A DNA stretch of 64,000 nt, from the NCBI GenBank assembly GCA_964016885.1, contig OZ024760.1:5456001-5520000 (forward strand), given 5' to 3'. This document shows, piece by piece, positions 2,230 to 58,838 of this stretch (position 1 is the stretch's first letter; every line of letters begins with the position of its first letter). The position numbers and the translations under genes were made by a program. Origin of the DNA: Eledone cirrhosa (lineage: Eukaryota). Below the pieces are notes generated by a model. It saw nothing but the letters and a program-made list of their open reading frames with translations, was not told the DNA's origin and ran no database searches.

Positions 2230-2350
2230 AAGAATAATACAGGAATGGCTTGTACAGGAGTACAAGAAATCACCAGGAAAGCCCTTTCCTGGTAATATCT
2301 TTTGAATGAAACAGTTCTAGTCCTGCAGAAACCATTTCTGTATTATACTT
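2230..2350. mobile_element. foldback element, family C (Penelope-like terminus)
   Basis: Inverted arms agaataatacaggaatgg..tacagga / tcctgcagaaaccatttctgtattatact around the hairpin ccaggaaa-gccc-tttcctgg; motif gaatgaaacagttctagtcctg recurs reverse-complemented near 4742 and 59735. Confidence 0.5.
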
Positions 2351-2365
2351 TATATATGTATATAT

Positions 2366-2535
2366 AACGAAGGAAATGTGGTAAGGAACCAGGTGGTCCA
2401 TAACGCACCAAAGAACCCAATACTTAGGGTAGTAGAGTGGGTAATAGGAACGAGTAGGACCCCGACGACTGAGCTCAAGCCGTTTCGACGGCTAATTCTG
2501 GACAAATTAGCCGTCGGGGTCCTACTCGTTCCTAT
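2366..2535 (-). mobile_element. foldback element, family B, in (TA)n (Penelope-like terminus)
   Basis: Near-identical to 4844-5055, 58432-58631 and 58644-58838; partial inverted end; flanked by TA repeats. Confidence 0.7.
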
Positions 2536-2944
2536 ATGTATATATATATAGAATAGAAAACGAAAAATGTGTGTGTGTACGTACACACTTATGGCAGAAG
2601 GGTGTGAGGACCTATGACCTTTATAGACGCTCCTAGATTGACATGACAGTGTTTGTCAGTGAGAGAGAGAAGGATGCAGAGAGGCCAGGCGTTGAAGGCA
2701 TTCCAGTAGGAGTTGTAGTTATGGATATGTAGGTAGAGAGAGAGAGTGGGAGGAGGAGGGGGGGGGGGGCTGATAGACAGGGATCACTTAGTACTACTCC
2801 TAACAACAACAGTAACATCATCGTCATCAGCTCTCAATCGCGTGTGCCAACGACCAGCTTGACATGTTACACCTGGTCATTTCGACGACTAGAAATCGCA
2901 GCTAGATTCATCCGAAATTGCAGCATACTGTCTTATAAAGTAAA

Positions 2945-3826
2945 TAATTGTTTCTACGGTTTCTAATTTGATAGAATCAACACCAGTGCATTACTGGTAC
3001 TTTATTTTATCAATCTCTTTAGGGTGAAAGGAAAGTCTAACCTCGGCGGGATTTGAACTTAATAATGGCTTCTAATATAGGCACAAGGTCAACAATTTTC
3101 TTTTCTTTTTTGGGGGGTGGAGGTGGATAAAGTCAATTAAATCGATTTCAGTGCGCTAGTGGTACTTTATTTTATCCCCCCCCCCCCTGTAAGGATGAAA
3201 GGCAAAGCTAACCTCGGCAGGATTTGAACTTACAACTTACAATGACGTAACTCTATGCCACAAAGCATGTTGTACGACGCCTTGCACACACTGTGAATAA
3301 TAATTGTTTCTACTTTTGGCACAAGGCCAGCAATTACCACCAGTGTATTACTGGTGCTTTATTTGATCAACCCCGTAAGGATGAAAGGCAAAGTTAACCT
3401 CGACGAGATTTATAATATAGTACATATGCAAGAAATATACTATATATGAAATCAGAACATTGAGGGACGTAACTATATGCCGCAAAACATGTCCGACGCT
3501 CTACCGATTACTGCCAATCCACGACACTAGAGTAAAGATGTTAAAAAACCCCCCAAAACAACAACATCTAGAATAAGGATTGCTAACGACTCTACCACCA
3601 AGTACCTCTCGCCCCCAATCACACATTCCCGAAGTAATAATTGTTTCTATTTTAGGCACAAGGCCAGAAATAACCCAGTACATTACTAGTACTTTATTTT
3701 CTCGACCCCGTAAGGATGAAAGGCAAAGTTAACCTCGGCGGGATTTGAACTCAGATCATAAAGAGACGTAACTCTATGCTTCAAAGCATGGCGTCCGACT
3801 CTCTACCGATACTGCCAATCCACCGC
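2945..3826 (-). mobile_element. cluster of 4-5 tRNA-derived SINE copies (family 1), minus strand
   Basis: Repeated reverse complement of gagttcaaatcccgccgaggttaactttgcctttcatccttacggggtcgataaaataaagtaccag..ggccttgtgccaaaagtagaaacaatt; head at 3790-3826 has an A-box-like tggcagtatcgg. Confidence 0.85.
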
Positions 3827-3829
3827 CCT

Positions 3830-4530
3830 AATGGTTTGGAGAAGCCGTTTGAGCATCGGACAAATGTTTCATTTTTTATTTTTTATTTTTTGGCTGGCTC
3901 ATTACGTTCTGTTCAAATTCCACTGAAGTCAACTTTGATTTTCATTGTTTCAAGGGGTCATGTAGTTAACTTTGTGCCAGTTTCAGAAAAAAAGATTATT
4001 GGTTGGCAGAATCGGTAGATCGTCGGACAACATGCCTTTCAGCATAGAATTACGGTCCTTTACGTTCTGAGTTCAAATCCTGGCGAGGTTAGCTTTGCCT
4101 CTCATCCTTAACGGGGTTGATAAAATAAAGTACCAATCACGCACTGAGGTCGATTTAATCCCCCCCCCCCAAAAAAAAAATTGCTTGCCTTGTACCTGAA
4201 TCAGAAACCATTATTACTTCCATTATCGCTAAAATAAGGTTACCAGCCAAGTACTGGCGTAGATTTAATCGACTTCCTCATTCCTCACTTCCCAAAAGCT
4301 TTACTGGCCTTGAGCCAAAATTAAAACCCTATATAGTCTGAGTTCAAATCCCGCCGAAGTTACCTTTACCTTTCATTCTTACGGGGTCGATAAAATAAAG
4401 TACCAGTAATGTACTGAGATAATTGCTGGCCTTGTGCCAAAAGTAGAAACAATTATCACTTCCCGTTTAATATTGAAGTCGACTTTTCGACCTACTCTAA
4501 ATTGCTGTCCTTGTGCCACTATTTTAAAGA
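3830..4530 (+). mobile_element. cluster of 3-4 tRNA-derived SINE copies (family 1), plus strand
   Basis: A box tggcagaatcgg (~4004), B box gagttcaaatcc (~4069, ~4340), shared body and agaaacaattat tail. Confidence 0.85.
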
Positions 4531-4799
4531 ATTCTTACTTCCGGGATTGATAAACTAAGGTATTCGGTAAATTAACTATATAACACCTTTCCACCATCAC
4601 ATCCATCCACCACATCCCTGTTTGGGAGGTGTTAAATGTATTTATGTTGTATATCGGGAGGTGACCACAGTTTAAATAAAAATGTGGTCAATATGTTAGT
4701 TGAATATAAGTATATTTATTTTATTACAGAATGACTAATACAGAACTAGAACTGTTTCATTCGTAAAGAAATCACCACAGATATATATATATATGATTT

Positions 4800-4843
<44 letters not shown>

Positions 4844-4848
<5 letters not shown>

Positions 4849-5055
4849 AACAAGTAAGACCCCGACGGCTGAGCTCAAGCCGTTTCGACGGCTAATTCTG
4901 GACTGAATCATTCAGTCCAGAATTAGCCGTCGAAACGGCTTGAGCTCAGCCGTCGGGGTCTTACTTGTTCCTATTACCCACTCTACTACCCTAAGTATTG
5001 AGTACTTTGGTGCGTTATGGTCCACCTGGTTCCTTACCACATTTCCTTCGTTATA
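4844..5055 (+). mobile_element. foldback element, family B, with 3' half of a hammerhead
   Basis: Near-perfect palindrome 4844-4973; GAAA-CGGCT-TGAGCTC-AGCCG-TC at 4932-4954; embedded in (TA)n. Confidence 0.7.
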
Positions 5056-5445
5056 TATATATATGTATATGATTTTTTTTTCGTGCCTGCATGAGTCAGG
5101 AACAAAAATAAGGGAGGTAACTCCAGCACTCACGCGGCTCTCCCTTAAGGGTGTCATTTTTCATGACTTAGTCATATCGATAAATGATCTGATTAGCTGC
5201 TTGTGTGTATATCTGTACTGTAAGTGCGTGTTTTGCGGAGCACTTCATTGTTGTCTAGAAATAGATTCTACGTGTGTGTGTCTGTGTGTAGGCAGATTGT
5301 ACAATTACATGTGTATATATATATATATATATGTGATGAAACACAGATACCAACACATCTGTATATATATTGCAAAAGAAAAATTTAGCCAGATTGTATA
5401 TATATATATATATATACTTAGGCAGATTGTACAATTACATTTGAT

Positions 5446-5480
<35 letters not shown>

Positions 5481-5589
5481 CTTAGGCAGATTGTACAATT
5501 ACATTTGATTTATATGTATAGTTGAAGAAATTACACAAACACGGTGATGCAAAAACACGACGTCTTATTAAGGTCACGCATGTTTGTGT

Positions 5590-5634
<45 letters not shown>

Positions 5635-5638
<4 letters not shown>

Positions 5639-5812
5639 ATCAAAAGATGGTTAAAGGAGTTCCATGTATTTTATTATGCGCATTTTAAAAACAAACATCA
5701 TCATGCAATAAAATGCGCATTTTATTATGCGCATTTCAAAAACAAACATCATCATGCAATAAAATGCGCATAATAAAATACATGGAACTCCTTTAACCAT
5801 CTTTTGATCTTA
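5635..5812. mobile_element. foldback copy of family A (the hammerhead-bearing element at 23622)
   Basis: taagatcaaaagatggttaaaggagttccatgtattttattatgcgcat and its reverse complement as arms, with an internal direct duplication; adjacent to (TA)n. Confidence 0.75.
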
Positions 5813-5906
5813 TATATTATGTATACTCCAGTCCTACAAACTGTAGAGTGCTTCTTATCCGATATCTGCATTGCTTTATTGTACTACAATAAAACTCACC
5901 TCCTAC

Positions 5907-5960
<54 letters not shown>

Positions 5961-6249
5961 AAGGTGCACGCGTGTGCATGTGTTACTTGGTGCTTCAATA
6001 GATGTTTGTGCGTGCATGTGTTTATGTTTCAATGCTACACACTAGGGTTAATAAATAAATAAAAATAAAAACAAAACAATGTATGTAGCAGATATATTTT
6101 TACTGTGTCTCCTCTACTCGGAAATTTTTCTGTTACTATTTACTATTATCAATTTCTTCATTGAAACTAATGCTTTGATCACATCCATGTATAAGTCGCA
6201 CTGGACCTAGTGTGAAAATCTAAAAAACCAAAACAAAACGTGTCTTGTT

Positions 6250-6412
6250 CCCGGAGGTTCATCAGGCAGATGAGAGTACAAGACCCCCCCCCCCCCCCTC
6301 GACAGGTCTCCAGTCAATTGCAGGGTTACACCCTCACCTCCCAGCTACTGCTTGTACACATTTTCCACTGAAGCAACGTGCAATGAAGTGTTTTACTCAA
6401 CAACACACAACA
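6250..6412 (-). mobile_element. degenerate CORE-like SINE fragment
   Basis: Reverse complement contains ttgagtaaaacacttcattgcacgttgcttcag..aaccctgcaattgactgg; related to 11298-11525. Confidence 0.5.
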
Positions 6413-6516
6413 CAGCTGATCTCCACGGGAGAGAGCGAGTAGAAATGAGAAAGAGATATAGAGCAAGAATCAACCGCAATACTGGACTGGTACACTTTTC
6501 CCTCAGATCTCTAAAG

Positions 6517-6987
6517 CAGAGCTTCTCAAAGTAGGTGCTACCGCCCCCGGGGTGGGGCATTGAGAAGGTCCAGGAGGGCGCTTGGGCTTAAGGAGGGGGT
6601 GGCAGTAGAGATGATATAATAGTATATTAACTATCAAATGATATATATATATATAAATATAGCAAAATAAAAATTATATATTTATTCATACATAATATCA
6701 TCATCACTGTTTTACTTAGATTATATTCCACGCCAGCATGGGTTAGACGGGTTGTCCTGTTGTGGGCAATGCCAGGTCAGGTGACCATGTCTTGCTCATA
6801 TGGAAACCAGTAATGAACTGGGTAATTGCTGGCCTTGTGCCAAAAGTAGAAACAATTATTTATTATATATAAATTAACTATTTTATTTTATTATATGATA
6901 TTTACAATTTGCATGTAGGCAGGTCTCTCTGGAAATAGGGTTGAGGGCCATGGGGTGGGGGTGGCCCCAAAAGTTTGAGAACTTCTG
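6517..6987. mobile_element. hAT-type MITE with nested SINE fragments
   Basis: TIRs cagagcttctcaaa / tttgagaacttctg; imperfect 8-bp TSD ctctaaag/cttgaaag; internal sequence shared in inverted orientation with 27732-27969. Confidence 0.6.
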
Positions 6988-8514
6988 CTTGAAAGGAATG
7001 GTGAGGGCTGGAGGCAGAGTTGAGCTTGGGTTTTTAACACAAAGAGCTGGAACAAAAACCCACAAAGTATTCCATTCAACCTGCCACCCCACCACCCCCA
7101 CACCACCCTACTTACCTCCCTCTAAAATATTTCCCTATCTTTTTTAGAAATCATTTCAGATATTGTTGGATTTTTTTTATTTTATTCATTTTTAATATAA
7201 AAAAAAAAAATTAAATTAACAACTAAAACAAAATTACAATGTTGACCTATAAACTGTGTGGGTTATTTAATATAGCTTTGGGAAAGGTTTGTTTGGTAGT
7301 CTCTCTTCTCTTTCTCTCTCTGGCTCCACACTCAATTTTTTCACTCCATCTTTCAATTTTTCTCTCTCTCCCTCGCTATATGACTGGCCTCACTCTCTTT
7401 CAATTTCTCTCCCTCCCTCGCTATATGACTGGCCTCACTCTCTTTCAATTTCTCTCCCTCTCACACTCTCTGTCTCCCTCTCTCTCTCTCATATTCACAC
7501 ACTCTCTCTCTCTTACTCACACACTCTCTCTTACTCACACATACACACTTTCTTTCACACACACACATACTCTCACACTCTCCCCCCCCCCCCCCTCTCT
7601 CTCTCTCTAATATTCACATACTCTCTCTCTTACTCACACATACACACTTTCTTTCACACACACACACATACACTCTTGCTCTCTCATGCCAAGAAAACTA
7701 ACAAACATTGATGTGAAATATCAAACAAAAATATCTTTAATAATCAAGGTCAGATGGACAGCTGTCTACCTCCTAGCTGTCTACCTCCCTCTTAGCTAGC
7801 TACCTACCTACCTAGCTGCCGACCTACTACCTCTCTAGCTGTTTACCCCACCTATGTACTTACCTAACTGTCTACCCATCTACATTATCTAAACACACCC
7901 ATCTTCCTACCTACCTCATCTAGTTGCCTACCTTTCCTACCTACCTTCTAACTTCACCCCTTCCTTCTATCCCTCACCTACCTATCTAACTACCTACCTT
8001 CTAACTTCACCCCTTCCTTCTATCCCTCACCTACCTATATAACTACTCACCTACCTACTTCACCTGTTGAACTCCCTGGCATTCCCAGGTTAATATTGTT
8101 GCTTTTGTTACCTGTTTGTCTGATGGTGAAGGTGATATGTCAAGTGTGGGAAAACAAACTGTATCATTATGACCATCATCATCACCTTTCAGGTAAAAAT
8201 CTAAATCAGTCTTGCATTAATTTATTTGGTGATCTAGCTAGATTTTAGTCAACCTCAAAATATAAGCCTTTGTGATTCTAATGTTGAAAGAAGAGATAGC
8301 TTGATAGATAGATAGAGGAGAGGGGGCGCAGTGAAAGAGAGAGCAGTGGGAACTATATTTCATATAATCCAATGCAAGTTATTAATTCTTTTGATAGCAA
8401 AGTCCCTGAAACCACCCCTGGTTCTAATATACAAAACTTATATCAAGAACACCTTCCATCGTAATTTTATGTAAGAACCTTTAAACTATGCCCAAAACAC
8501 TGATGTAATAAGTA

Positions 8515-8690
8515 ATATACATACTCGAATATAAGCCGAGGAATATGTGACCAAAAAAATCAATGGTAAAACGGGAGGTTGGCTTATATACACCATCTAA
8601 ACAATGTGTTGATTAGCTGCCATGGTTTATAAACAGGGTTTGGATTTTCACTTCTCAGGTACAGAATGGGGGTTTGGCTTATATTTGAAT
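8515..8690. mobile_element. pogo/Tc2-like DNA transposon fragment
   Basis: atactcgaatataagccga and inverted ttggcttatat motifs; related motif at 13576-13655. Confidence 0.45.
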
Positions 8691-8719
8691 TCTATCGTTT
8701 TAACATTATTTATTTTTCT

Positions 8720-9317
8720 ACAGCTTTTCTAGGGCATTTTTGAAAACCTGGTGGTACCCATCTCCTCTCCAAGTTTGACTACAGCAGATTTCTTCCAGAG
8801 AAGGACAGAGGGTCAGAAAATGGAAGTGAGGAAGAATTGACTCCAGTCTTGAACAGGTACTCAGAATGGAGTTCAAATCCTGCCGAGGTTAACTTTGCCT
8901 TTCATCCTTACGGGGTCGATAAAATAAAGTACCAGTAATGCACTGAGTAATTGCTGACCTTGTGCCAAAAATAGAAACAATTATTTATTTTACTACATTT
9001 CTCCAAATTCTTGATTATTTTGGAAAACATTTGAAAACCAGAGACAGTGTCTGTCATTAGAAATATGATAATGAAAATATTGGCAGAGCATCAAATAGAA
9101 TGCTTTGTGGTATTTGATTCAGTTCTCAACTCTTTGAGTTCAACTTTTCATCCATTCAAGGTCGGAAAAAAAAAAGAGTTCCTGTTCAAGACTGAAGTCA
9201 ATTCTTCCTCACTTCCATTTTCTGACCCTCTGTCCTTCTCTGGAAGAAATCTGCTGTAGTCAGACTTGGCGAGAAGATGGGTACCACCAGGTTTTCAAAA
9301 ATGCTCTAGAAAAGCTA
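8720..9317. repeat. ~140-bp inverted duplication (8720-8862 / 9176-9317) around a SINE
   Basis: Arms are reverse complements with only a few substitutions; spacer holds a family-1 SINE (8868-8985). Confidence 0.9.
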
Positions 9318-9476
9318 TGTCAATATGGCGTCCCTATGACCCCCTCAGGAGTTACAGGACCAAACAAAAACAAATGGAAATATTGAGAGAGAGAGAGAGA
9401 GAGAAGTTGTGTGAACTTTAATTATTTACATAATCCAGTGTAAACTAAATGCATTTTTTTAATTTTTGTTTTATAT

Positions 9477-10615
9477 ATATAATTAATTGCAAGCTATCGA
9501 AGGAGGTTGTACTACCACCTTGATTTGGTATAATTAATTGCAAGCTATCGAAGGAGGTTGTACTACCACCTTGATTTGGTATAATTAATTGCAAGCTATC
9601 GAAGGAGGTTGTACTACCACCTTGATTTGGTATAATTAATTGCAAGCTATCGAAGGAGGTTGTACTACCACCTTGATTTGGTATAATTAATTGCAAGCTA
9701 TCGAAGGAGGTTGTACTACCACCTTGATTTGGTATAATTAGATGCAAGCTATTGGTGGAGGTTGTACTACCACCTTGATTTGGTATAATTAATTGCAAGC
9801 TATCGAAGGAGGTTGTACTACCACCTTGATTTGGTATAATTAATTGCAAGCTATCGAAGGAGGTTGTACTACCACCTTGATTTGGTATAATTAGATGCAA
9901 GCTATCGAAGGAGGTTGTACTACCACCTTGATTTGGTATAATTAATTGCAAGCTATCGAAGGAGGTTGTACTACCACCTTGATTTGGTATAATTAGATGC
10001 AAGCTATTGGTGGAGGTTGTACTACCACCTTGATTTGGTATAATTAGATGCAAGCTATTGGTGGAGGTTGTACTACCACCTTGATTTGGTATAATTAGAT
10101 GCAAGCTATTGGTGGAGGTTGTACTACCACCTTGATTTGGTATAATTAGATGCAAGCTATCGAAGGAGGTTGTACTACCACCTTGATTTGGTATAATTAG
10201 ATGCAAGCTATTGGTGGAGGTTGTACTACCACCTTGATTTGGTATAATTAGATGCAAGCTATTGGTGGAGGTTGTACTACCACCTTGATTTGGTATAATT
10301 AGATGCAAGCTATTGGTGGAGGTTGTACTACCACCTTGATTTGGTATAATTAGATGCAAGCTATTGGTGGAGGTTGTACTACCACCTTGATTTGGTATAA
10401 TTAGATGCAAGCTATTGGTGGAGGTTGTACTACCACCTTGATTTGGTATAATTAGATGCAAGCTATCGAAGGAGGTTGTACTACCACCTTGATTTGGTAT
10501 AATTAGATGCAAGCTATCGAAGGAGGTTGTACTACCACCTTGATTTGGTATAATTAGATGCAAGCTATCGAAGGAGGTTGTACTACCACCTTGATTTGGT
10601 ATAATTAGATGCAAG
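9477..10615. repeat. 51-bp minisatellite, ~22 copies
   Basis: Unit gcaagctatcgaaggaggttgtactaccaccttgatttggtataattaatt with two variant blocks (aatt/agat and tcgaagga/ttggtgga). Confidence 0.97.
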
Positions 10616-10904
10616 GTCGTAATATTATTAATATATTTCATACATGTTGAGTGACTTATCATCATCATCATCATACATCTGCTTTTCTATGCTTGCATGA
10701 GTTGGAAAGGTCTTTCTTCCGCACAGCATCCCTCCACTTGTTACAGTCCTTCATCATCTCCTTTGTGAGCTTCACTAGAAGCAACCAAAAGTGTTTGTGT
10801 CAGGAAGGGCAAAGGTCGGTGTCAGGAATGACAAGGGTCGGTGTCAGGAATGACAAGGGTCGGTGTCTGGAAGGGCAAAGGTCGGTGTCTGGAAGGGCAA
10901 AGGA

Positions 10905-11146
10905 TCTCTGTGCTTGACCAGTTGATGACATTGTAACTGTAGGTTACTACTGGTATGGCAAGCGTGTTTATGGCATCGATCCTATTCCTTGCATTCAATT
11001 CCGTTCTTAAGATTGCTCTTACTCTGAGGTAACATTCCTTCCTTATCCTTTCCCTCATTGTTGAGTGCTTGATTCCGTCTCCTTCACAAACACCTAGATA
11101 TTTGTAAGTTTTTTCTTGATCAAGTTCTCTTATCACGTTCCCCCGA
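10905..11146 (-). mobile_element. R4/Dong-clade non-LTR retrotransposon RT fragment
   Basis: GNVIRELDQEKTYKYLGVCEGDGIKHSTMRERIRKECYLRVRAILRTELNARNRIDAINTLAIPVVTYSYNVINW: RT domain 7 YKYLG plus the AINT.A.PV..YS...I.W thumb motif of R4/Dong elements. Confidence 0.8.
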
Positions 11147-11297
11147 TCAGGAAGGGCAAAGGTCGGTGTCAGGAAGGGCAAGGGTCGGTGTAAGGAAGAG
11201 CAACGGTTGGTGTCGGCAAGGGTCAGTGTCAGGAAGGGCATCTAGCTGTAAAACTTTGGCCTCAAAACGCCCCATCCAACCCATGCCTGCGTAGAAA

Positions 11298-11525
11298 ATT
11301 GTGGGTTCAATTATTCCTGAACCAGGTGGCACATGGTGTTTTTGTTCAAAGCACTTCATCATTTCACATTGCTCCAATATACTGAGTACCAGCAGCAGCA
11401 GCAGCAGCTGGGAGTTAACCCTGTGAAGGACTGGCATCCTGTCCAGGGTGGGAAGTTGTGTACTCTCACTCACTTAATGCCAATGAAAAAGGAAACTTGG
11501 AATAAGCACCAGCCTGATGGCTTGG
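11298..11525 (+). mobile_element. CORE-like SINE, degenerate
   Basis: B-box-like gggttcaatt, core-like caaagcacttcat, tail aaccctgtgaaggactggcatcctgtccaggg. Confidence 0.5.
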
Positions 11526-11591
11526 GACAGACTTTAGCCATTTGTGTATCCAGAATTGGACATTGAACGATGTCGCCCTCCCTCTGTCACT

Positions 11592-15215: not shown

Positions 15216-15246
<31 letters not shown>

Positions 15247-23088: not shown

Positions 23089-23220
23089 TATGAAAGACGT
23101 AAAATAAGAAAATTTTAAAAATTAAAAATCAACTTACTTACTAAAATTTTCACTTGGAGTGAAAATTTTAGTAAGTTGATTTTTAATTTTTTAAATTTTC
23201 TTATTTTACGTCTTTCATAT
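23089..23220. repeat. AT-rich foldback next to (TA)n
   Basis: atatgaaagacgtaaaataagaaaatt..ttttcact-tgg-agtgaaaa..aattttcttattttacgtctttcatat. Confidence 0.85.
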
Positions 23221-23434
23221 AATTGTTCTGCATCCCCCTGCATAGAACTACAAAGGTACTAAGACATAACATATATATTTGCTAGCATGGGTGTACATCT
23301 GTACACATATGTTGGTAGATATACTAATTCTCTCTATATATATATATATAGAAGTTATATTTAATTTGTTGGGATACAACAAGCAAATATTTTTATAACT
23401 GATATAAAGCACTCAACAAATTTTTGGAGTAAAA

Positions 23435-23594
23435 ATACAATATATTAACAAATGGAAACTATATTTATAAAACCATATTTATTTCATTATACATATTTCA
23501 AGGACACCATAATTTGCTTTGATGTCCTTGAAATATGTATAATGAAATAAATATGGTTTTATAAATATAGTTTCCATTTGTTAATATATTGTAT
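23435..23594. repeat. foldback whose arms carry GAAA-TATGTA-TA (half-hammerhead-like)
   Basis: Arms of ~70 bp that are exact reverse complements, around caaggaca..tgtccttg; GAAA at 23530-23533. Confidence 0.8.
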
Positions 23595-23654
23595 ATATAT
23601 ATGTATATATATATATATAATATAAGATCAAAAGATGGTTAAAAGAGTTCCATG

Positions 23655-23725
23655 TATTTTATTATGCGCATTTCAAAAACAAATATCATCATGGGATGAT
23701 ATTTGCGTTCTCATCAGATAAAATA
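23655..23725 (-). ncRNA. minimal type I hammerhead ribozyme (Penelope-like element type)
   Basis: Minus strand: UAUUUUAU-CUGAUGA-GAACGCAAAUAUCAUC(CCAU)GAUGAUAUUUGUUUUU-GAAA-UGCGCA-UA/AUAAAAUA; perfect 8-bp stem I, 16-nt stem II arms, palindromic stem III, AUA cleavage triplet. Confidence 0.8.
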
Positions 23726-23819
23726 GGGAGACATGATATGAAGCTTAAAAAACACTTGCGAGCAGTGAAGTGTTAAATCTACATATGACCTGGGATGAGG
23801 TGATAAAAGCCGACCTTAC

Positions 23820-30007: not shown

Positions 30008-30452
30008 TATATTGTTATACTTTGGGTGGTTGGGGGTGGGTCAGGCTGCCAATAAAAACCTGTTGGTTTTCACTTCAATTTATTATAAATTTCTGGTTGG
30101 TTGGTTTGATAACCAGATGGTTTTTTAAAAATATATTATCAAAGCTCTTTTGTCACACATTCTGTGACCTCCTCAGTGAGTGGGTTTTTATTTTGTGTCT
30201 CTCCTTTGTTCTGTCTTACACCATCTTGAAAAAGCATGATGGTGTAGGACAGAACAAAGGAGAGACGCAAAATAAAATCCTAGTCACTGAGGCGGTCACC
30301 GAATGTGTGACGAAAGAGCTTTGATAATATTTAAACCATCCGGTTATCGAACCAACCAACCAACCGGAAATTTATAAATAAATTGAAGTGAAAACCAACT
30401 GGTGCGTGTGTTTTTATTGGCAGCATGACCCTCCCAAAGTATAACAATATAT
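30008..30452. mobile_element. 445-bp foldback with an outward-facing degenerate hammerhead in each arm
   Basis: Arms of ~210 bp; plus arm CTGAGGC-G-GTCAC..GTGAC-GAAAGAGCTT-TGA (30287-30324); minus arm CTGAGGA-G-GTCAC..GTGAC-AAAAGAGCTT (30140-30176). Confidence 0.7.
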
Positions 30453-45392: not shown

Positions 45393-45846
45393 TTAACCCT
45401 TTAGCATTTAAACCAGCCATATCCAGTCAGAATTCTCTCACCTCTTTCTGTTCAAACCAGCCATAACTGGCTGCCCATACCGACATTAAAGTATTGTTCT
45501 CAAAATAAGTATCAAAATCTTGTAGATTCAATATTATGTGAGATAAAGGCTTTACTGTGAAAATACAATAATAAATATAGAGTAATGTAAATGGTAAAGG
45601 GTTAGTAAAGAGAAAGTTAGTCATATTAGCATTTACATTACTCTATATCTACTATTGTATTCTCACTGTAAAGGCTTTATCTCACATAATTATTTCACAT
45701 AGTTTCTAATCTATGAGATTTTGATATTATTTATTTTGAGAACAATTCCTTAACATAAGTATGAGTGACCAGTTACGACTGGCTTGAACACAAAGAGGTG
45801 AGAGAATTCTGGCCGGATATGGCCGGTTTAAATGTTAAAGGGTTAA
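45393..45846. mobile_element. two P1 MITEs in inverted orientation (45393-45605 minus, 45625-45846 plus)
   Basis: TTAAccctttagcattta start and taaatgttaaagggTTAA end; bodies are reverse complements of each other. Confidence 0.85.
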
Positions 45847-45849
45847 TAA

Positions 45850-47455: not shown

Positions 47456-47498
<43 letters not shown>

Positions 47499-48136: not shown

Positions 48137-48272
48137 TATTGCAATTTGAAGCTTATATGTCATAACAATTCCATTTTTTGATAACTAAAAACCTTAAAAC
48201 ATTCTCATTGGGGCGCAGATTTTGAAAATGAAAACTGTTGTTCTCTAGGTTGCACTATTTCAGAACCTTTGA

Positions 48273-48715
48273 GAGACATACACAGACATACACACATACA
48301 CACACATACACAGACATACACACATACACAGACATACACACATACACACATACACAGACATACACACATACACAGACATACACACATACACAGACATGCA
48401 CACATACACAGACATACACACGCATACACACATACAGACATACACACATACAGACATACACATACATAGACATACAGACATACAGACATACAGACATACA
48501 CAGACACACAGACATGCATAGACATACACAGACATGCATAGACATACACAGACATACACAGACACAGACATACAGACATACAGACATACAGACATGCATA
48601 GACATACACATATATACACAGACATACATAGACATACACATACACACGCAGACATACAGACATACACAGATAAACAGATATACACATATACACATATACA
48701 CAGACATACAGATAC
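48273..48715. repeat. (CA)/(CAGACATA)n compound repeat
   Basis: Seen directly. Confidence 0.93.
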
Positions 48716-48759
48716 ATTCTCATTTATTGTATAGGTATATAATCATCGTTCTTGTTATT

Positions 48760-50975
48760 GCCATCATCATCACCACCACCACCACCACCATCACCACCAC
48801 CACCATCACCACCACCATCACCACCACCACCATCACTACCATCATCACCACCACCACCACCACCACCACCACCATCATCATCATCACCACCACCATTGCT
48901 AGCATCATCGTCATTTTTATAAATATATATTTATATATATCACCATCGTCATCACCACCACAATCATCATCGTCACCACCATCATAAACCATCACCACCA
49001 CCACTGTCATCATTGTCATCACCACCACCACCGTCATCACCACCACCACTGTCATCACCACCACCACTGTCATCATTGTCATCATCATCATCATTGTCAT
49101 CACCACCACCATTGTCATCACCACCACCATTGTCATCATCGTCATCATGGTCATCATTGTCATCATCATCACCACCACCACCATTGTCATCACCACCACC
49201 ACCACCACCACCACCACCATTGTCATCATCATCACCACCACCACCACCATTGTCATCACCACCACCACCACCATTGTCATCATCACCACCACCACCACCA
49301 TTGTCATCATCACCACCACCACCATTGTCATCACCACCACCACCACCACCACCATTGTCATCATCATCACCACCACCACCATTGTCATCACCACCACCAC
49401 CACCACCATTGTCATCATCACCACCACCACCACCACCATTGTCATCATCACCACCACCATTGTCATCATCACCACCACCACCACCATTGTCATCATCATC
49501 ACCACCACCACCATTGTCATCACCACCACCACCACCATTGTCATCATCACCACCACCACCACCACCATTGTCATCATCACCACCACCACCACCATTGTCA
49601 TCATCATCACCACCACCACCACCATTGTCATCACCACCACCACCACCACCACTGTCATCACCACCACCACCACCACCACCATTGTCATCATCACCACCAC
49701 CACCACCACCATTGTCATCATCACCACCACCACCACCATTGTCATCATCATCACCACCACCACCATTGTCATCACCACCACCACCACCACCACCATTGTC
49801 ATCACCACCACCACCACCACCACCATTGTCATCATCACCACCACCACCACCATTGTCATCATCATCACCACCACCACCATTGTCATCACCACCACCACCA
49901 CCACCACCATTGTCATCATCACCACCACCACCACCATTGTCATCATCACCACCACCACCACCATTGTCATCATCACCACCACCACCACCATTGTCATCAT
50001 CATCACCACCACCACCATTGTCATCATCATCATCACCACCACCACCACCATTGTCATCATCACCACCACCACCATCATTGTCATCACCACCACCACCACC
50101 ACCACTGTTATCACCACCACCACCACCACCACCACCACCATTGTCATCACCACCACCACCACCACCACTGTCATCACCACCACCACCACCACCACCATTG
50201 TCATCATCATCACCACCACCACCATTGTCATCATCATCACCACCACCACCATCATTGTCATCATCATCACCACCACCACCACCATTGTCATCATCACCAC
50301 CACCACCATCATTGTCATCACCACCACCACCACCACCACCATTGTCATCATCACCACCACCACCACCATTGTCATCATCACCACCACCACCACCATTGTC
50401 ATCATCACCACCACCACCAACATTGTCATCATCATCACCACCACCACCATTGTCATCATCATCATCACCACCACCACCACCATTGTCATCATCACCACCA
50501 CCACCATCATTGTCATCACCACCACCACCACCACCACTGTTATCACCACCACCACCACCACCACCACCACCATTGTCATCACCACCACCACCACCACCAC
50601 TGTCATCACCACCACCACCACCACCACCATTGTCATCATCATCACCACCACCACCATTGTCATCATCATCACCACCACCACCATCATTGTCATCATCATC
50701 ACCACCACCACCACCATTGTCATCATCACCACCACCACCATCATTGTCATCACCACCACCACCACCACTGTCATCACCACCACCATTGTCATCATCACCT
50801 TTGTCATCACCACCACCACCACCATTGTCATCATCATCACCACCACCACCACCATTGTCATCACCACCACCACCACCATTGTCATCATCACCACCACCAC
50901 CATCATTGTCATCACCACCACCACCACTGTCATCACCACCACCATTGTCATCATCATCATCATCATCATCATCCT
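48760..50975. repeat. ~2.2-kb (CAC)n-ATTGTCAT compound triplet array
   Basis: Seen directly; produces the 628-750 aa low-complexity ORFs in three frames. Confidence 0.97.
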
Positions 50976-51029
50976 GGCAAGTAAATGGCAGATCTGTGTG
51001 AGTGTAGGTAAATATACTTTACACTGTGT

Positions 51030-51620
51030 TTAAATTATCCCAAGGTCAACCTTGCCTCTCATCCTTTCAAGGTCGATTATATAGAATACCAGTTACGGCC
51101 CTTTACATTCTGAGTTCAAATCCCACCAAGGTTAGCTTTGCCTTTCATCCTTTTGGTGATAATATAGAATACCAGTAATGCACTGGAGGTTGATTTAATA
51201 GACTATCACCCTCCCCCCCCCTCCTCACTAAATTGCTGGTTTTGTGTCTAAGATGGACAATATGTTTTGTGACATATAGTTACGTCCCTTTACGATCTGA
51301 GTTCAAATCCCACCGAGGTTAGCTTTGCCTTTCATCCTTACAGGATCGATAAAATAAAGTACCAGTAATGTACTGGGGTCAATTTAATAGACTTTCACCC
51401 CCCCCCCCACTAAATTGCTGGTTCTGTGTCTAAATTGGACAATATGTTTGTTTTGTGGCTTATAGTTACAGCCTTTTACATTGAGTTCAAATCCCTCTGA
51501 GGTTAGCTTTGCCTTTCATCCTTATGGGGTCGATAGAATCAAGTACCAGTAAAGTATTGGGGAGAGGAGGGGGGGGGGGGCGATTTTCCTCAAAATTGTT
51601 GACATTGTGCCAAACATAGA
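51030..51620 (+). mobile_element. tandem run of 3-4 family-1 SINE bodies
   Basis: gagttcaaatccc at about 51112, 51299 and 51483 with shared downstream sequence. Confidence 0.8.
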
Positions 51621-51671
51621 TTGACAGCAGTATTGGTAGAGCACTGGACAATCTTCTTTTTATCATATAGT

Positions 51672-52380
51672 AATGTTGGCAGTGTATTTCAGGGGAGTTG
51701 GAAGTGTTGGCAGTGTATTTCAGAAGTGTTGGCAGTGTATTTCAGAAGTGTTGGCAGTGTATTTCAGAAGTGTTGGCAGTGTATTTCAGAAGTGTTGGCA
51801 GTGTATTTCAGGGGAGTTGGCAGTGTATTTCAGGGGACTTGGAAGTGTTGGCAGTGTATTTCAGAAGAGTTGGAAGTGTTGGCAGTGTGTTTCAGGGGAG
51901 TTGGAAGTGATGGCAGTGTATTTCAGGGGAGTTGGAAGTGATGGCAGTGTATTTCAGGGGAGTTGGAAGTGATGGCAGTGTATTTCAGGGGAGTTGGAAG
52001 TGATGGCAGTGTATTTCAGGGGAGTTGGAAGTGATGGCAGTGTATTTCAGAAGTGATGGCAGTGTATTTCAGGGGTGTTGGCAGTGTATTTCAGAAGAGT
52101 TGGAAATGTTGCCAGTGTATTTCAGGGGGGTTGGAAATGTTGGCAGTGTATTTCAGAAGAGTTGGAAGTGTTGGCAGTGTATTTCAGGGGAGTTGGAAGT
52201 GATGGCAGTGTATTTCAGGGGGGTTGGAAGTGTTGGCAGTGTATTTCAGAAGAGTTGGAAATGTTGGCAGTGTATTTCAGAAGAGTTGGAAATGTTGGCA
52301 GTGTATTTCAGGGGAGTTGGAAGTGTTGGCAGTGTATTTCAGAACAGTTGGAAATGTTGGCAGTGTATTTCAGGGGAGTT
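51672..52380 (+). repeat. 31/22-bp minisatellite inside a SINE
   Basis: Unit gttggaagtgttggcagtgtatttcagggga; SINE head upstream (gcagtattggtagagc, ~51627) and B-box/body downstream (gttcaaatcgcgccgagg, ~52390). Confidence 0.92.
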
Positions 52381-52944
52381 ACATTCTGTGTTCAAATCGC
52401 GCCGAGGTTAGAGGTTAGCTTTGCCATCTTTATGGGTGGGATCGATTAAATTATAGTACCTGTAAAGCACTTTGTTGGCCTTGTGCCTAAATCACACACC
52501 ATTATTATCTTCCCATTCTCCCCCTCCACCCACTACCACCACCTATAAATATGGTGGATTTTCTTAGTGTTTTTTTTTTTTTAATCCTGGGATTATATAG
52601 GGTCTGTAATGGCATCTCTCCATCTCCATCTCTCTCTCTGTCTTTCTCTTCCCCCACCGCATTCCATGTTGTGTCAAATACTTTCTCTATCTACCTATCT
52701 CTCTCTCTGCCCCACCCCAACCCATGTTGTGTCAAATAGCGGAAGCGATTGACTTGATTGACAGATAATAATTATCATCGTTGTTGTTGTTGTTGGAGAG
52801 GGATTTGGTTCCCCCCCCCCTCCCCAATCATGTTTGTAGAGGGGAGGGGGTTGTGAGTGTTTTAGGGAAATAGTTTTTGGTAGATTTATGTGATTATTAA
52901 ATAGCATCACCAGCTTCATCATCAGCAGCAACAAATGACAACAC

Positions 52945-53245
52945 TGTTACTATTATGACTACCACCACCACCACTACTACTACTACTACTTCTACTATCA
53001 CCACCACCACTACTACCAGCACTACAACCACCAGCCCCATTACCACCACCACTACCACTGCTGCTACTATTATTACTACCTCCACCACCGCTGCTGCTGC
53101 TGCTGCTACTACTACTACTACCACCACCACCACTGCTAGCCCCAATACTACCACTAATACCACAACCACCACTATTACTACTACTACAACCACCATCCCT
53201 ACTGCTACCACCACCACCACCACCACTACTACTACTACTACTACA
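52945..53245. repeat. (ACT/ACC/GCT)n microsatellite
   Basis: Seen directly. Confidence 0.9.
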
Positions 53246-53734
53246 TACCTTGCATATATGCGACAATAACAGAATTTTAAAGACCCCCCCCCCAAAAAAA
53301 AATCTGTTAAACTCTTAATTACCTCCCACCCACACCATACCCCCTCCCTCACCAATCCAACACAGATTTACATAAACACTTTAATTTAATCACTTCCGTA
53401 TTAGAGGAGAAACAATGTGGACCTTTATAAAGAAATATAAATGAAATAAATGAAATAAGCCCCTTCCTCCCTTTTCTGGGTTTAGTTGTAGATTTAAATA
53501 GTTAAATAGTTTGACCTAACAAAGAAGTGGTTTGATGAACGACGGTTTATTAGTTGCTTTCATTGTCCTCGGAGATTAATCGATTATACCATTTCATTAT
53601 ATATGTGTGTGTGTGTATTAATCTTACCTATATATATATATACACACACATATATACACATATATACACACAGACACAAGTAGGTGGGATTAATGTCTGG
53701 AATGACACTTTGATTTGACATTTTGCTCTCTCTC

Positions 53735-53784
<50 letters not shown>

Positions 53785-54370
53785 CCATCTCTCTCTTACT
53801 CTCTATATATCTATATCTATCTATCTTCTCTCATGTCACATTTTGTTTTGATTGGAAGATGAAATAACAAGTGTTTATATTGATAATGCATAGGTATTTT
53901 TCCTCTCTTTCTCGTGCTCTATCTATCTATCTCTCTCTCTCTCTCTCTCTCACTCACCTTCATGCTCTTTTACACTCACTGATCTGCTACAAGAGATTTC
54001 ATTATCCCCTGAGCAAACCGACCCAGACCGACCTACCGAGCAGTCTGTTTAAAACTGATCGTGAAAAGATAAGTTTCTCCTCTCGTTGTGAAAAGATAAG
54101 TTTCTCCTCTCGGCTCATCTCTTTATATTCCGACTGCTAAACACATATAGCCACATAAACACTGTAACATTAACAGGACATCTCGTTATCTCACCTGATC
54201 GTCTCAACAATGGGGGCTTCACTATCCAGCTACAGAGAAAAAGAGTCTATTCTGCGTCATAAACTAAAGACTTATCTTCTAAAGAGAATGACCGCCTTCC
54301 CTGTTGTGTCAACTCTCCCTGATATTGAACCAGGGATTGTGACCAGTGAGTATAATTTTGCACTAACCGT

Positions 54371-54700
54371 CTACCCATTTACCCGGCTATTCATCTATCA
54401 AGCTACCCATTTACCCGGCTATTCATCTATCAAGCTACCCATTTACCCGGCTATTCATCTATCAAGCTACCCATTTACCCGGCTATTCATCTATCAAGCT
54501 ACCCATTTACTTGGCTATTCATCTATCAAGCTACCCATTTACCCGGCTATTCATCTATCAAGCTACCCATTTACCTGGCTATTCATCTATCAAGCTACCC
54601 ATTTACCCAGCTATTCATCTATCAAGCTACCCATTTACCCGGCTATTCATCTATCAAACTACCCATTTACCCGGCTATTCATCTATCAAGCTACCCACCT
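54371..54700. repeat. 32-bp minisatellite, ~10 copies
   Basis: Unit ctacccatttacccggctattcatctatcaag. Confidence 0.95.
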
Positions 54701-55049
54701 ACCTAGCAACTTGGTGAACCATCTACCCAACTGACTATCTACACATCCACCCAGCCACATATCTACTCAGCTAACTGTCTACCCATCAACCAATTACACA
54801 TCTAACCATTTATTTGGCTACCCAGCTACCTGGCTACCCAACTACCCATCTAACCAGCCACCCATCTAACCATCTACTCAGGTACCTGGCTATCCATCTA
54901 ACCAGCCACCCACCCATCTACCTGGTTACCAATCTAACCATGCTACCCAGCCACCCATCTAACCAGTTTACTGATCTAATCATCTGTTCATCTTGCCACT
55001 GTTGTGGTTTTTCAACGTCCATTTGTTTTCAGCCATATCTCCCCCTCCC

Positions 55050-55511
55050 TCCCCTGAAATACGCTGCCAACACTTGTAACTCCCCTAAAATACACTGCCA
55101 ACATTTCCAACTCTCCTGAAATACACTGCCAACATTTCCAACTCTCCTGAAATACACTGCCAACATTTCCAACTCTCCTGAAATACACTGCCAACATTTC
55201 CAACTCTCCTGAAATACACTGCCAACATTTCCAATTCTCCTGAAATACACTGCCAACATTTCCAACTCCCCTGAAATACACTGCCAACATTTCCAACTCC
55301 TCTGAAATACACTGCCAACATTTCCAACTCTTCTGAAATACACTGCCAACACTTCCAACTCTTCTGAAATACACTGCCAACACTTCCAACTCCCCTGAAA
55401 CACACTGCCAACATTTCCAACTCCCGAAATACACTGCCAACACTTCGAGCTCCCCTGAAATACACTGCCAACACTTCCAACTCCCCTGAAATACACTGCC
55501 AACACTTCCAA
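55050..55511 (-). repeat. 31-bp minisatellite, same family as 51672-52380, inverted
   Basis: Unit ctgaaatacactgccaacatttccaactctc, ~15 copies. Confidence 0.95.
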
Positions 55512-55591
55512 TGTATGTTAAATTATTTTGAAAATAATCAGAAATTTATAGTAATTTAATCCTGTCATTGTAAATCTGGTGTTTCTAAAGC

Positions 55592-55850
55592 CATGTGGCC
55601 GAGTCGTCAGGGTGTTAGACGTACAAGGAAAAGGGTTGTTGGTTCGATTCCTGGGCAGGGCAACGCACAGGTAGACCTGCAGGTAGAATCAGTGATTGAA
55701 AGACCATTGGAGACATTGTTTCCTTGGTTCCGATTTGATGGTTGACTCCATTATTCCTTTCACCCCCAAATGATAAAATGTACATAATACATGTGGTGAA
55801 CTGCTTGGCATTAGGAAGGTCCCACAGCCTTAGAAATGGTGCCAAAATGG
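55592..55850 (+). mobile_element. tRNA-derived SINE (third family)
   Basis: A box tggccgagtcg, B box ggttcgattcc, tail ttggcattaggaagg. Confidence 0.55.
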
Positions 55851-55884
55851 AACATTTGACCTAGATGTGTCTGGCATCTGAACA

Positions 55885-56109
55885 TTAACCCTTTAGCATT
55901 TAAACTGGCTATATCCCTCCAGAATTCTCTCACCTTTTTCTGTTCATACTGACTGTAACTGGCCACTCATCCAGATTTAAGGTATTGTTCTCAAAATAAA
56001 TATCAAAATCTCGTAGATTTGATATTATGTGAGATAATTATGTAAGGTAAAGCCTTTACCATGAAAATATAATAGTAAATATAGAGTAATGTAAATGCTA
56101 AAGGGTTAA
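55885..56109 (-). mobile_element. piggyBac-type MITE (P1)
   Basis: TTAAccctttagcattta .. taaatgctaaagggTTAA, perfect TIRs. Confidence 0.9.
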
Positions 56110-56941
56110 CCCCCTGCTAGCGTGGGATATAGGCGTAAAATAGTGGTGATGGTGATGATGCTGATGGTGGTGTTGGGGGGATGGTGATGATGGTGGTGGA
56201 GATGGTGATGATGATTGTAGTGGTGGTGGTTGTGGGAATGGGGGTGGGGGTGAGGGTAATGATATTGAAAATAACGGAAATGTTTTATGAGAGAAAATAT
56301 GAAAAATAAAAACATTGAATACAATCACAACATTGCTACCCCCAACGATATGCCCCCCCCCCCTACGGATTGTGGTGGTGTGGGGGAGTTTCGCTGTGTT
56401 CAGGCATGTTGGAGCTGTTCTCTGGTGTTTGGGTGTGTGTGGGGAGGCATTCTCTGACACATGCTGCTTTGTGGTCCCAGCGAGAAAAATGTTTCCCCCA
56501 AAAGATGGTGTGGAGAGAGCCCTGCGCCAACTGGCAGGGCTCCCTCCTGTGGGGTGATGAAGGGGGTGGTCAAGGGTTCAGTTCCACTCCTTCGTTCTAC
56601 CCTACCTACCTGCTCCAGACATCAGACTAAGTCTCTGTCTGAGAGTCAAGATCATCATCATTTTTCTTCCATTTTTTTGTGTTTTTTTTTCCATGCTGGC
56701 ATGGGTTGGATGGGATGTTTCAGACCTAGTCAACAGTTCCTTAGAGTTACTGTCTTCCTAGACAGGTTGAAGGACCATGTTTCTCCAATATCTTCCATTG
56801 CTTCATTTTTACCATAGTTTCTATGTCTGGGTGCCCTTCATAATGCCAACCACTTTACAGAGTACACAGGATGCATTTTACTGTCGTACTAGCACTTGAA
56901 AAGGTGTAATGTCCGTGATGTTAACACATTGTCCCTTTTGT

Positions 56942-57157
56942 TTAACCCTTTAGCATTTACATTACTTTATATATACTATTGTATTTTCATGGTAAAGGCT
57001 TTATGTAACATAATATCGAATCTATGAGATTTTGATATTATTTATTTTGAGAACAATACCATAACATAATTATGAGTGACCGGTTACAGCCAGTTTGAAC
57101 AGAGAGAGGTCAGAGAATTCTAGCCGGATATGGCTGGTTTAAATGCTAAAGGGTTAA
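56942..57157 (+). mobile_element. piggyBac-type MITE (P1), reference unexpanded copy
   Basis: Perfect 14-bp TIRs ccctttagcattta with TTAA on both sides. Confidence 0.92.
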
Positions 57158-57564
57158 CAAAGGCCATTATTTGAGGGAACTTTGGCAGCTTGTTCTAGCA
57201 TATCAAGAGCTCCTATTATCTAGAGTTGTTGAAGTAGTTAGTAAGGATGGCTGTTATAACTTAAGTGCTGATAGTGTTAGTGTTGGTGTGTGCCTGTCTC
57301 CATTCTACAGTCCTCCTCCTATTTATAATCTCTGGGGTCCATATGTTTGGGTCTGTTGTGTAGGTGCTGCACATACACACATACACCTAGCATGGCCCTT
57401 ACAATACCATGGTATAATCAGCTTGTAATATGTAGTCAAATCTAATAATACTTACACAGAAACACTAAATCAGGCTGAAGTTATGTTATGTAGAGAAATA
57501 ACCTAAAATTTGTATGTTTATTTATTTATTTAATATTAAACGGTGATGATTGTTATATATATAT

Positions 57565-58118
57565 ATCATCATCATCACCGTTTTATGTCCATGCTAGCAT
57601 GGGTTAGACAGGTTGTCCTGTTGTGTGCAATGCCAGGTCAGGTGACCATGTCTTGTTCATACATAACTGATTTTGGCTTGGTTTCTACAGCTGGATGCCC
57701 TTCCTAACACCAACCTCATTTACAGTGAGTGCTGGGTGCTTTTTTACTGTGGCGCCTACACAACCACTTTACAGTGTGGACTGGGTGCTTTTTGTCGTGA
57801 CACCTCCACAACGACTTTACAGTGAGGACTGGGTGCTTTTTATCGTGACACCTCCACAACGACTTTACAGTGTGGACTGGGTGATTTTTGTCGTGACACC
57901 TCCATGACCACTTTACAGTGTGGACTGGGTGCTTTTTATCGTGACACCTCCACAACGACTTTACAGTGTGGACTGGGTGATTTTTGCTGTTGTGACACCT
58001 ACACAACCACTTTACAGTGTGGACTGGGTGATTTTTGTCGTGACACCTCCACGACCACTTTACAGTGGGAGGGGGTGGGGGCATACTGTCTATATGCTTC
58101 AGCTTCAGCTTGTACCTG
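57565..58118 (-). mobile_element. family R element with an internal 48-bp tandem expansion
   Basis: Homologous to 34049-34447; actttacagtgtggactgggtg..gtgacacctccacaacg repeated about 7-8 times versus 2-3 in other copies. Confidence 0.8.
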
Positions 58119-58431
58119 TATATATATATAACAATCATCACTGTTTAATGTCTATTATACACACACATATACATCATCATCATCATCATCACTGTTTAAT
58201 GTCTATTTTTCCATACTTGCATGGGTTAAACGGGCCGACCACGTCATGAGACAAGTCTGGCGAGCTGGCCATCCTCTACCTTGCTCAGATGGAACTGTAT
58301 TTTGGCTGGGATTTATATATATATCATCATCATCATCGTTTAACATCCATTACACCCACCCACACATGTATGTATATATATCATCATCACCGTTTAATGT
58401 CCATTACACACCCACGTATATATATATATAT

Positions 58432-58833
58432 AACGAAGGAAATGTAGTAAGGAACCAGATGGACCATAATGCATCAAAGTACTCAATACTTAGGGTAGTA
58501 GAGTGGGTAATAGGAACAAGTATGACCCCGACGGCAGAGCTCAAGCTGTTTCGACAGCTAATTCTGGACAGAGTCCAGAATTAGCCGTTGAAACGGCTTG
58601 AGCTCTGCCGTCGGGGTCATACTTGTTCCTATATATATATATATAACGGAGGAAATGTGGTAAGGAACCAGGTGGACCATAATGCACCAAAGTACTCAAT
58701 ACTTAGGGTAGTAGAGTGGGTAATAGGAACGAGTAGGACCCCAACAGCAGAGCTCAAGCCGTTTCGACGGCTAATTCTGTCCAGAATTAGCCGTCGAAAC
58801 GGCTTGAGCTTTGCCGTCGGGGTCATACTTGTT

Positions 58834-58838
<5 letters not shown>
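58432..58838 (-). mobile_element. two tandem family-B foldback elements separated by (TA)n
   Basis: Each has aacg.aggaaatgt.gtaaggaacc.. followed by a palindrome centred at ~58571 and ~58780. Confidence 0.75.

Follow-up and report, generated by a model that had tools for sequence, protein, structure and literature searches.

Penelope-like elements (PLEs) of the Hydra clade include Hydra-1_Obim and Penelope-13_HM (Craig et al. 2021, PMC8557442). Insertions of EN+ PLEs have been described as carrying an inverted, 5′-truncated pLTR and an optional tail (Arkhipova et al. 2013, PMC3846280). In vitro, the Poseidon PAc protein nicks and extends both strands, and its reverse transcription (RT) has two start sites, one at each boundary of the tail (Frangieh et al. 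2024, PMC11167929). The origin of the inverted pLTRs and of the one-sided tail in PLEs is still open (PMC8557442).

A 64,000-nt stretch of the Eledone cirrhosa genome (GCA_964016885.1, contig OZ024760.1, positions 5,456,001 to 5,520,000 of the forward strand; hereafter the window) holds seven hairpins adjoining (TA)n. A preliminary description attributed these to four unrelated families in which cDNA folds back about stem II of a hammerhead ribozyme during retrotransposition. Inspection of the window located all seven hairpins where they had been reported, and retrotransposition stands as their origin. Judged from their sequence, they are the shortest insertions, or back-to-back stubs, of Hydra-clade PLEs, a very abundant known kind. 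We further propose that the turning point is probably where the element's RNA begins, and not the ribozyme stem. Each insertion consists of two head-to-head arms in (TA)n, and a tail of ~80–100 nt, found on one arm only, lay outside the hairpins as first delimited (Table 1).

Table 1. Ribozyme-bearing insertions in the window, numbered from its first nucleotide
Feature	Positions	Strand	Details
Family D two-arm insertion	2165..2350		Left end approximate; tail-bearing minus arm, partly deleted, joined at ~2282 to tail-less plus arm; plus arm with decayed whole hammerhead (core 2289-2295, GAAA at 2308)
Family B two-arm insertion	2365..2535		Tail (2365-2444) on minus arm; jump between two internal direct repeats has shortened plus arm
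Family B two-arm insertion	4844..5053		Tail-less minus arm; plus arm with tail 4975-5053; 9-nt insert separates arms, each reaching predicted RNA-start boundary; 4844-4974 a perfect 65-bp inverted repeat, fold z = -23.6
Family A two-arm insertion	5636..5890		Tail on plus arm; right end approximate; unusual junction in loop II region and internal duplication
Family C two-arm insertion	23350..23594		Arms joined through genuine stem II microhomology, a rare class; tail on minus arm, left end approximate
Family A single arm	23622..23786	minus	Complete type I hammerhead at 23655-23725
Family E palindrome	30050..30440		Core 30133-30330; ends approximate; hammerhead-type core in each arm, axis well upstream of core
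Family B two-arm insertion	58431..58632		Tail on minus arm, 58431-58509
Family B two-arm insertion	58644..58838		Tail on minus arm, 58644-58721; arms discordant at subfamily-type sites

Their motifs identify families A–D as pLTRs, the ends that bear the ribozyme, of related Penelope-like retrotransposons in the Hydra clade. A common tail hairpin motif and homologous flanking ORFs contradict the view that they are unrelated. The family B unit encodes a single ORF (P0001, 786 aa) with an RT followed by a C-terminal GIY-YIG endonuclease, and homologues lie beside the A, C and D ends (ORFs 36–50% identical, E ≤ 1e-134). The assignment rests on motifs because Pfam and PDB searches with the ORFs returned no relevant family or match. 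The CxCX5C linker is present in all four families, as are CxxC..E and N..CxH; the GIY-YIG domain of B has no CCHH pair. DKG is replaced by DKT in B, A and D, and the C copy examined did not fit this pattern; the N-terminal RWK position reads RWR in B, C and D, with no pattern match in A. The GIY-YIG core contains one Cys in B and C and two in D, the A core being unmatched by the search pattern. (TA)n flanks the insertions, as expected for Hydra-clade targets; a (TA)n target masks any target-site duplication.

These features resemble those described for Hydra-clade PLEs in PMC8557442: a single RT-EN ORF, DKT, the CxCX5C linker, CxxC/CxH around E and N, no CCHH pair in the GIY-YIG domain of family B, (TA)n targets, a 3′-end hammerhead and a 5′-truncated inverted copy. 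The RWR that replaces RWK may be a further parallel. The family D hammerhead layout, CTGATGA-T...T-GAA, equals the Penelope_HM rows of that paper. By contrast, the hammerheads differ from the motif listed there for Hydra-1_Obim, family B combines a U3-A8 core with a long stem-loop II, and its unit of 3,523 nt exceeds the clade's "generally under 3 kb". Copy numbers also depart from those described, with tens of thousands of short stubs across the four related families. Like EN+ PLEs (PMC3846280), the insertions display head-to-head pLTRs, a tail at one end, palindromic junctions, and TATA and initiator-like motifs in the pLTR. Unlike them, most are 150–300 bp long, B tails reach ~80 nt versus 30–40 bp, and the inner end is fixed within a few bases, a position for which the account in PMC3846280 made no link to an RNA start. 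Contigs of four public runs contain the families, with one contig lying on both strands and none spanning the window locus; runs of two other organisms hold the same parent continuation.

Other origins were considered and set aside. A non-LTR retrozyme needs tandem monomers, each with a complete hammerhead, whereas the copies in the window derive from coding elements, as stubs with two arms. A MITE or DNA-transposon origin conflicts with ends that are asymmetric and continue into RT ORFs. An assembly artefact would account neither for arms that differ in their tails and at single positions nor for a form found 12,572 times over.

A descriptor scan of the window retrieved the complete hammerhead at 23655–23725 (minus strand) as its sole match, and an Rfam search listed no hammerhead family at E ≤ 1. 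Family A does occur as a complete ribozyme and as a folded derivative, as previously reported, the latter being a two-arm insertion. A canonical hammerhead is predicted from sequence in the pLTRs of A, C and D. For D, the earlier parse is replaced by a stem III of ACAG/CUGU with cleavage after GUA, not GUC, and by arms that carry the whole ribozyme; its stem I pair is A-T in 19 and C-G in 7 copies (26/26 paired). Family B has a variant U3-A8 core, and its minimum-free-energy fold is the hammerhead (z only -0.67). Published hammerheads offer parallels: they include type I forms whose stem III is minimal or palindromic, the U3-A8 variant of the core in Schistosoma Cercyon, and opposite-strand pairs 100–700 bp apart. 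Half-ribozyme arms and a start site in loop II, as predicted here for family B, are not among the features described. The CUGANGA half, described earlier as missing, is indeed absent from the four B copies and from the A and C copies of the window, but those A and C copies are atypical of their families. It is kept in 46/53 arms of A, 82/92 of C and 65/85 of D, where the 5′ ends of the diverged C and D subfamilies were assessed by core-presence and landmark counts; among the families, B alone is without the 5′ half (12,572 palindromes). The evidence gives no support to the suggestion that the hairpins might be trans-cleavable substrates, since a perfect duplex encloses their cut site.

The combination of one tailed and one tail-less arm was found in 84/86 B, 22/22 D, 11/12 C and 9/11 A insertions, corresponding to the unit of EN+ PLEs with its inverted head-to-head pLTR and tail at one end. 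This two-arm architecture is already published. As anticipated in the preliminary description, the fold-back axes are not random; the modal axis lies ~110 nt (A) or ~125 nt (C) upstream of GAAA, whereas D turns most often at stem I and B within loop II. Gaps of 199–227 nt separate the arms in eight of 11 short A palindromes, and both cores are retained in 10 of the 12 palindromes from C. The family E palindrome, absent from the original list, is a counter-example to the half-hammerhead fold-back pattern. Among B junctions, 44/86 are blunt or overlap by microhomology, with inserts among the others. The two arms of an insertion share one haplotype in 30/30 cases versus 26% expected, the copy at 58644..58838 being an exception to this match.

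The preliminary description was correct that parents have the 5′ ribozyme half. Its predicted B parent, including stem I, has no exact match in the genome, and a shorter version of the pattern matches twice, each time in a mutated inverted arm. The true B parent (3,849 matches) has the U3-A8 core and a 5′ stem II strand that differs from the prediction. A search for CUGANGA within 30 nt of B arms yielded 15 matches, which were junction inserts or neighbouring elements and no parents. Extending the pattern past the tail gave 34 matches, mostly microsatellite flanks, yet the parent could be reached from 30 of them.

In B, the arms have a sharp end 18 nt upstream of GAAA, where an initiator-like site follows a TATA-like box at a distance of 29 nt. 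None of 172 B arms matches the parent over at least 24 nt upstream of GAAA, and genome-wide only 36 matches extend into the next hairpin strand versus 12,572 B palindromes. Long arms pair with a long arm in 60 of the first 100 cases, and the 43 short arms that lack a short mate never have a long one; this favours a template end over a stall at the boundary. Within 300 nt there is a single TATA-like start, located 29 nt (B) or 30 nt (D) before a YYANWYY motif, whose +1 is at the boundary in B and within ~1 base of it in D; YYANW itself occurs 14–16 times per 300 nt. Promoter support is weak in A, which has no TATA-like box, and in C, where the box is only 12 nt upstream. The base preceding the boundary in non-palindromic B arms (T 9, G 3, C 2, A 1) gives no clear cap-derived G. 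Truncated arms ending within 2 nt of the ribozyme cut site number 4/19 in B, a count confounded by an internal repeat, and 0/32 in A, C and D.

These observations are probably best explained by two-sided priming. Both nicked strands of the (TA)n target would prime RT on the same RNA, at two start sites in its 5′ pLTR. Each cDNA would then run off the 5′ end of that RNA, and the cDNA ends would be joined head to head by end-joining. The hammerhead would be a passenger, with the share of the ribozyme in each arm set by the RNA start position. We infer the two primers, the single RNA and the identity of the boundary as a transcription start. The matching haplotypes argue for a common template for both arms. 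The Poseidon PAc system is alike in its two tail-bounding RT start sites, the nicking and extension of both strands, an AT-rich target and dispensable ribozyme cleavage; it belongs to a different clade, and head-to-head joining of run-off cDNAs is not among its described results (PMC11167929).

Haplotype identity suits snap-back equally well, and a single cDNA could also produce the two arms. Starting at the tail site, it would reach the RNA 5′ end, self-prime through a short microhomology or added bases and copy back, after which the endonuclease would trim the second arm at the tail boundary. In the literature, PLE junction palindromes have been attributed to self-priming (PMC3846280) and the tail to endonuclease resolution (PMC8557442); the frequent blunt or microhomology-overlapped junctions fit as well. 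We nonetheless consider this unlikely because, in long insertions, the tail-less arm is longer in 11/19, in several by kilobases (tail arm longer in 6/19, equal in 2/19), and RT starts at both tail boundaries in vitro (PMC11167929). That set comprised 22 insertions, 14 of them fetched because both arms were long; 19 were classified, and three had the same tail state scored on both arms. Later deletions at the centre could also make long arms unequal.

Less likely still is a version of dual priming in which the boundary is a processed RNA end or an RT stop, whether a 3′ splice site, a structure stop or a nuclease cut. The B and D boundaries resemble 3′ splice acceptors, coming after pyrimidine tracts and ending in AG; the Drosophila virilis Penelope intron end maps to hammerhead helix I (PMC4209133), where the D boundary also lies; and the predicted fold places the B boundary at a bulge in the apical hairpin of the extended stem II. 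Yet the AG is often included in the arms (36 end at 18 nt versus 4 at 16 nt before GAAA), no common upstream exon was found, and an independent stop predicts many short-plus-long insertions, against the 0/43 observed. Snap-back or template switching at stem II in every family, as first proposed, is very improbable. The C copy at 23435 is a real stem II-mediated junction, with several alike among 181 matches, and loop II holds the turning point of B, its region that of the A copy in the window. Stem II-range junctions in C are at most those 181 versus 14,694 arms, however, and the retained cores, the gapped A palindromes, the variation of modal axes among families, the absent predicted parent and the true parent's 5′ stem II strand, found in 0/86 B junctions, all speak against it. 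As a general rule stem II snap-back is refuted; such pairing accounts for a rare minority of junctions only.

With two-sided priming of one RNA as the preferred reading, the predicted start in family B falls in loop II and would split the ribozyme in two, leaving only the GAAA/stem III/GUC half in the arms. At slightly under an even chance, family B may thus have a promoter inside its own ribozyme, with a TATA box in stem II and the start in loop II. The RNA's 5′ copy would be the substrate half, which could not cut off its own cap, and a whole U3-A8 hammerhead would be confined to the 3′ pLTR or to pairing between copies. The 12,572 stubs would then locate the start at single-base resolution and preserve a record of one RNA primed from two sides.

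Ribozyme-driven fold-back insertions do not hold up as a class, and with them goes what was most surprising in the original finding. The short stubs give base-level predictions for RNA 5′ ends, the two RT start sites and the relevance of ribozyme cutting. Transcription of the perfect hairpins, if it occurs, would make them a large source of dsRNA, and family B suggests a way to stop a ribozyme from cutting the 5′ end of its mRNA.

A 786-aa RT-endonuclease ORF lies upstream of the family B parent, the intact Penelope-like element (PLE) end that carries the whole ribozyme. Pfam and the PDB returned no relevant match for this ORF, and its motifs agree with the Hydra clade as defined in the available part of PMC8557442 (section 11). 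The ORFs adjoining the hammerhead-bearing ends (pLTRs) of families A, C, and D are 36–50% identical to the B ORF and possess the same linker and C-terminal motifs. Entries in the available part of the PMC8557442 supplement include a Hydra family from octopus, as well as one Hydra copy bearing an inverted 5′ copy. Because of the ORF similarity, the common motifs, and the listed Hydra families, A–D are read here as related PLE ends, in place of the unrelated sequence families of the preliminary description.

All seven hairpins reported previously are present, each adjoining (TA)n, and the complete hammerhead claimed alongside them is real; no hammerhead families are listed for the window in Rfam. 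One arm (one half of the head-to-head palindrome) of every hairpin carries an outer tail that the earlier coordinates did not include. Two stacks of different PLE families fit the idea that a single microsatellite is targeted repeatedly.

Features of the window (64,000 nt)
Position	Feature	Remarks
1972-2085; 23136-23176	Small palindromes	Resemble miniature inverted-repeat elements
2165-2535	D next to B	Stacked in one (TA)n tract
2940-4520	SINE-like copies (presumed)	Cluster, both orientations
4742-4790; near 59751	Further D arms	Decayed or solo, minus strand
5636-5890	Family A copy	
8722-9316; 45393-45846	Inverted repeats with spacers (141 and 119 nt)	No hammerhead anchors; possibly other repeat classes
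23350-23594	Family C copy	
23350-23786	C next to A	Stacked in one (TA)n tract
23655-23725	Complete hammerhead	
30050-30440	Fifth palindrome family (E)	Hammerhead-type core in both arms, which apparently extend outward equally far
58431-58838	Two B insertions, direct tandem	Short TA run between; subfamily-type variants differ between arms of the second, possibly by conversion between neighbours

The B parent predicted in the preliminary description, including stem I, has no exact match in the 3.0-Gb animal genome, that of a probable octopus by its SINE-like repeats, and the two matches to a shorter pattern are both mutated inverted arms. In the actual parent, recovered at four loci (L023, L030, L032, and L082), stem I is followed by a UUGAGAA core and the 5′ strand of stem II; a long loop bearing an apical hairpin comes next, ahead of the known 3′ half. 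The parent has 3,849 exact matches. Its minimum free energy fold is a three-way junction with a z of only −0.67. UUGAGAA-type cores correspond to the U3–A8 variant described in the accessible portion of PMC4209133, and one B subfamily displays CUGAGAA instead (TTGAGAA 35, CTGAGAA 12 among 47 parents listed for the top ten patterns). The resulting C3–A8 mismatch lies in the catalytic core of an abundant subfamily (parents such as L030, L116, and L132), whose abundance hints, from sequence, that cleavage may be dispensable.

Systematic fold-back about stem II, as proposed earlier, is unsupported by the positions at which the arms end. In a sample weighted to one contig (C1), the 5′ core was retained in 46/53 A, 82/92 C (ten loci with arms separated by ≤60 nt excluded), and 65/85 D arms, and in 3/35 B arms when counted only at loci not picked by a B pattern. 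Exact 3′ halves number 14,271 (A), 14,694 (C), and 27,663 (D) genome-wide. C palindromes with ≤60 nt between arms total 181 genome-wide, only some of which join at stem II as the window copy does; among 11 short A palindromes, the gap is 199–227 nt in eight; and D palindromes keep both cores in 16 of 23 cases and lack both in none. A compensatory stem I pair in D (A–T 19, C–G 7) supports a revised D structure. Among the 12,572 B palindromes genome-wide, the 86 examined have arm ends peaking at 18, 17, 14, and 12 nt upstream of GAAA; no arm (0/172) matches the parent over 24 nt or more, and no junction (0/86) holds the 5′ stem II strand. Any snap-back through stem II would first have to copy the apical hairpin's 5′ strand, and matches extending that far number only 36 genome-wide, which excludes snap-back as the rule.

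Inverted pLTRs, tails, and junction palindromes have already been published (available parts of PMC3846280 and PMC8557442), and in vitro a PLE protein nicks the two strands and extends each, with reverse transcription beginning at two sites that bound the tail (PMC11167929, in part). We infer that priming from both target strands would yield cDNAs that run off the RNA 5′ end and are then joined end to end, because of the tails, arm pairing, boundary context, common haplotypes, and longer tail-less arms. Insertions combine one tailed with one tail-less arm in families B (84/86), A (9/11), C (11/12), and D (22/22). Of the first 100 long arms matched, 60 have another long arm as mate, and short arms without a short mate have a long mate in 0/43 cases, which points to a template end common to both cDNAs rather than independent stalls. 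A single self-copying cDNA is a less likely reading: the same haplotype on both arms (30/30 informative cases) fits one RNA or one cDNA, and of the 19 long insertions that could be classified, partly chosen as pairs, 11 have the longer arm on the tail-less side, which self-copying does not predict unless later deletions intervene. B junctions comprise 42 inserts, 24 microhomologies, and 20 blunt joins (n = 86). Poly(A/T) runs of ~12–18 nt between the B arms of three loci (L001, L216, and L225) suggest untemplated addition at cDNA ends. At ~1500 in L004 and L010, B arms are joined directly behind the hammerhead region of another family, which could reflect nesting of one insertion in another or template switching from one RNA to the next.

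As to the RNA 5′ end itself, the B and D boundaries (the sharp inner ends of the arms) fall at an initiator-like motif 29–30 nt past the only TATA-like start within 300 nt; promoter-like support is weak for A and C. Transcription of Penelope in D. virilis starts inside the upstream pLTR (PMC2377424, in part). Both of these boundaries, in B and in D, look like splice acceptors as well, and if used as such they would not be starts. In non-palindromic B arms the base preceding the boundary is T in 9, G in 3, C in 2, and A in 1, and truncated arms end within 2 nt of the ribozyme cut site in 4 of 19 B cases, where an internal repeat confounds the count, and in 0 of 32 for A, C, and D. Within the literature covered, mostly outside subscription papers, nothing was found linking the inverted junction to an RNA start or describing a transcription start inside a hammerhead loop, and the available part of PMC13282606 makes no mention of palindrome, hairpin, or hammerhead.

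If transcribed, the B hairpin would bury its GUC site inside a perfect 65-bp duplex and is therefore a poor candidate for the trans-cleavable substrate suggested earlier; dsRNA production from such putative transcripts is plausible. The hairpins are real and abundant, yet their kind of insertion and their clade, as placed by motifs and identity, are both already known; what is new and testable is a single detail, the predicted split ribozyme of family B.
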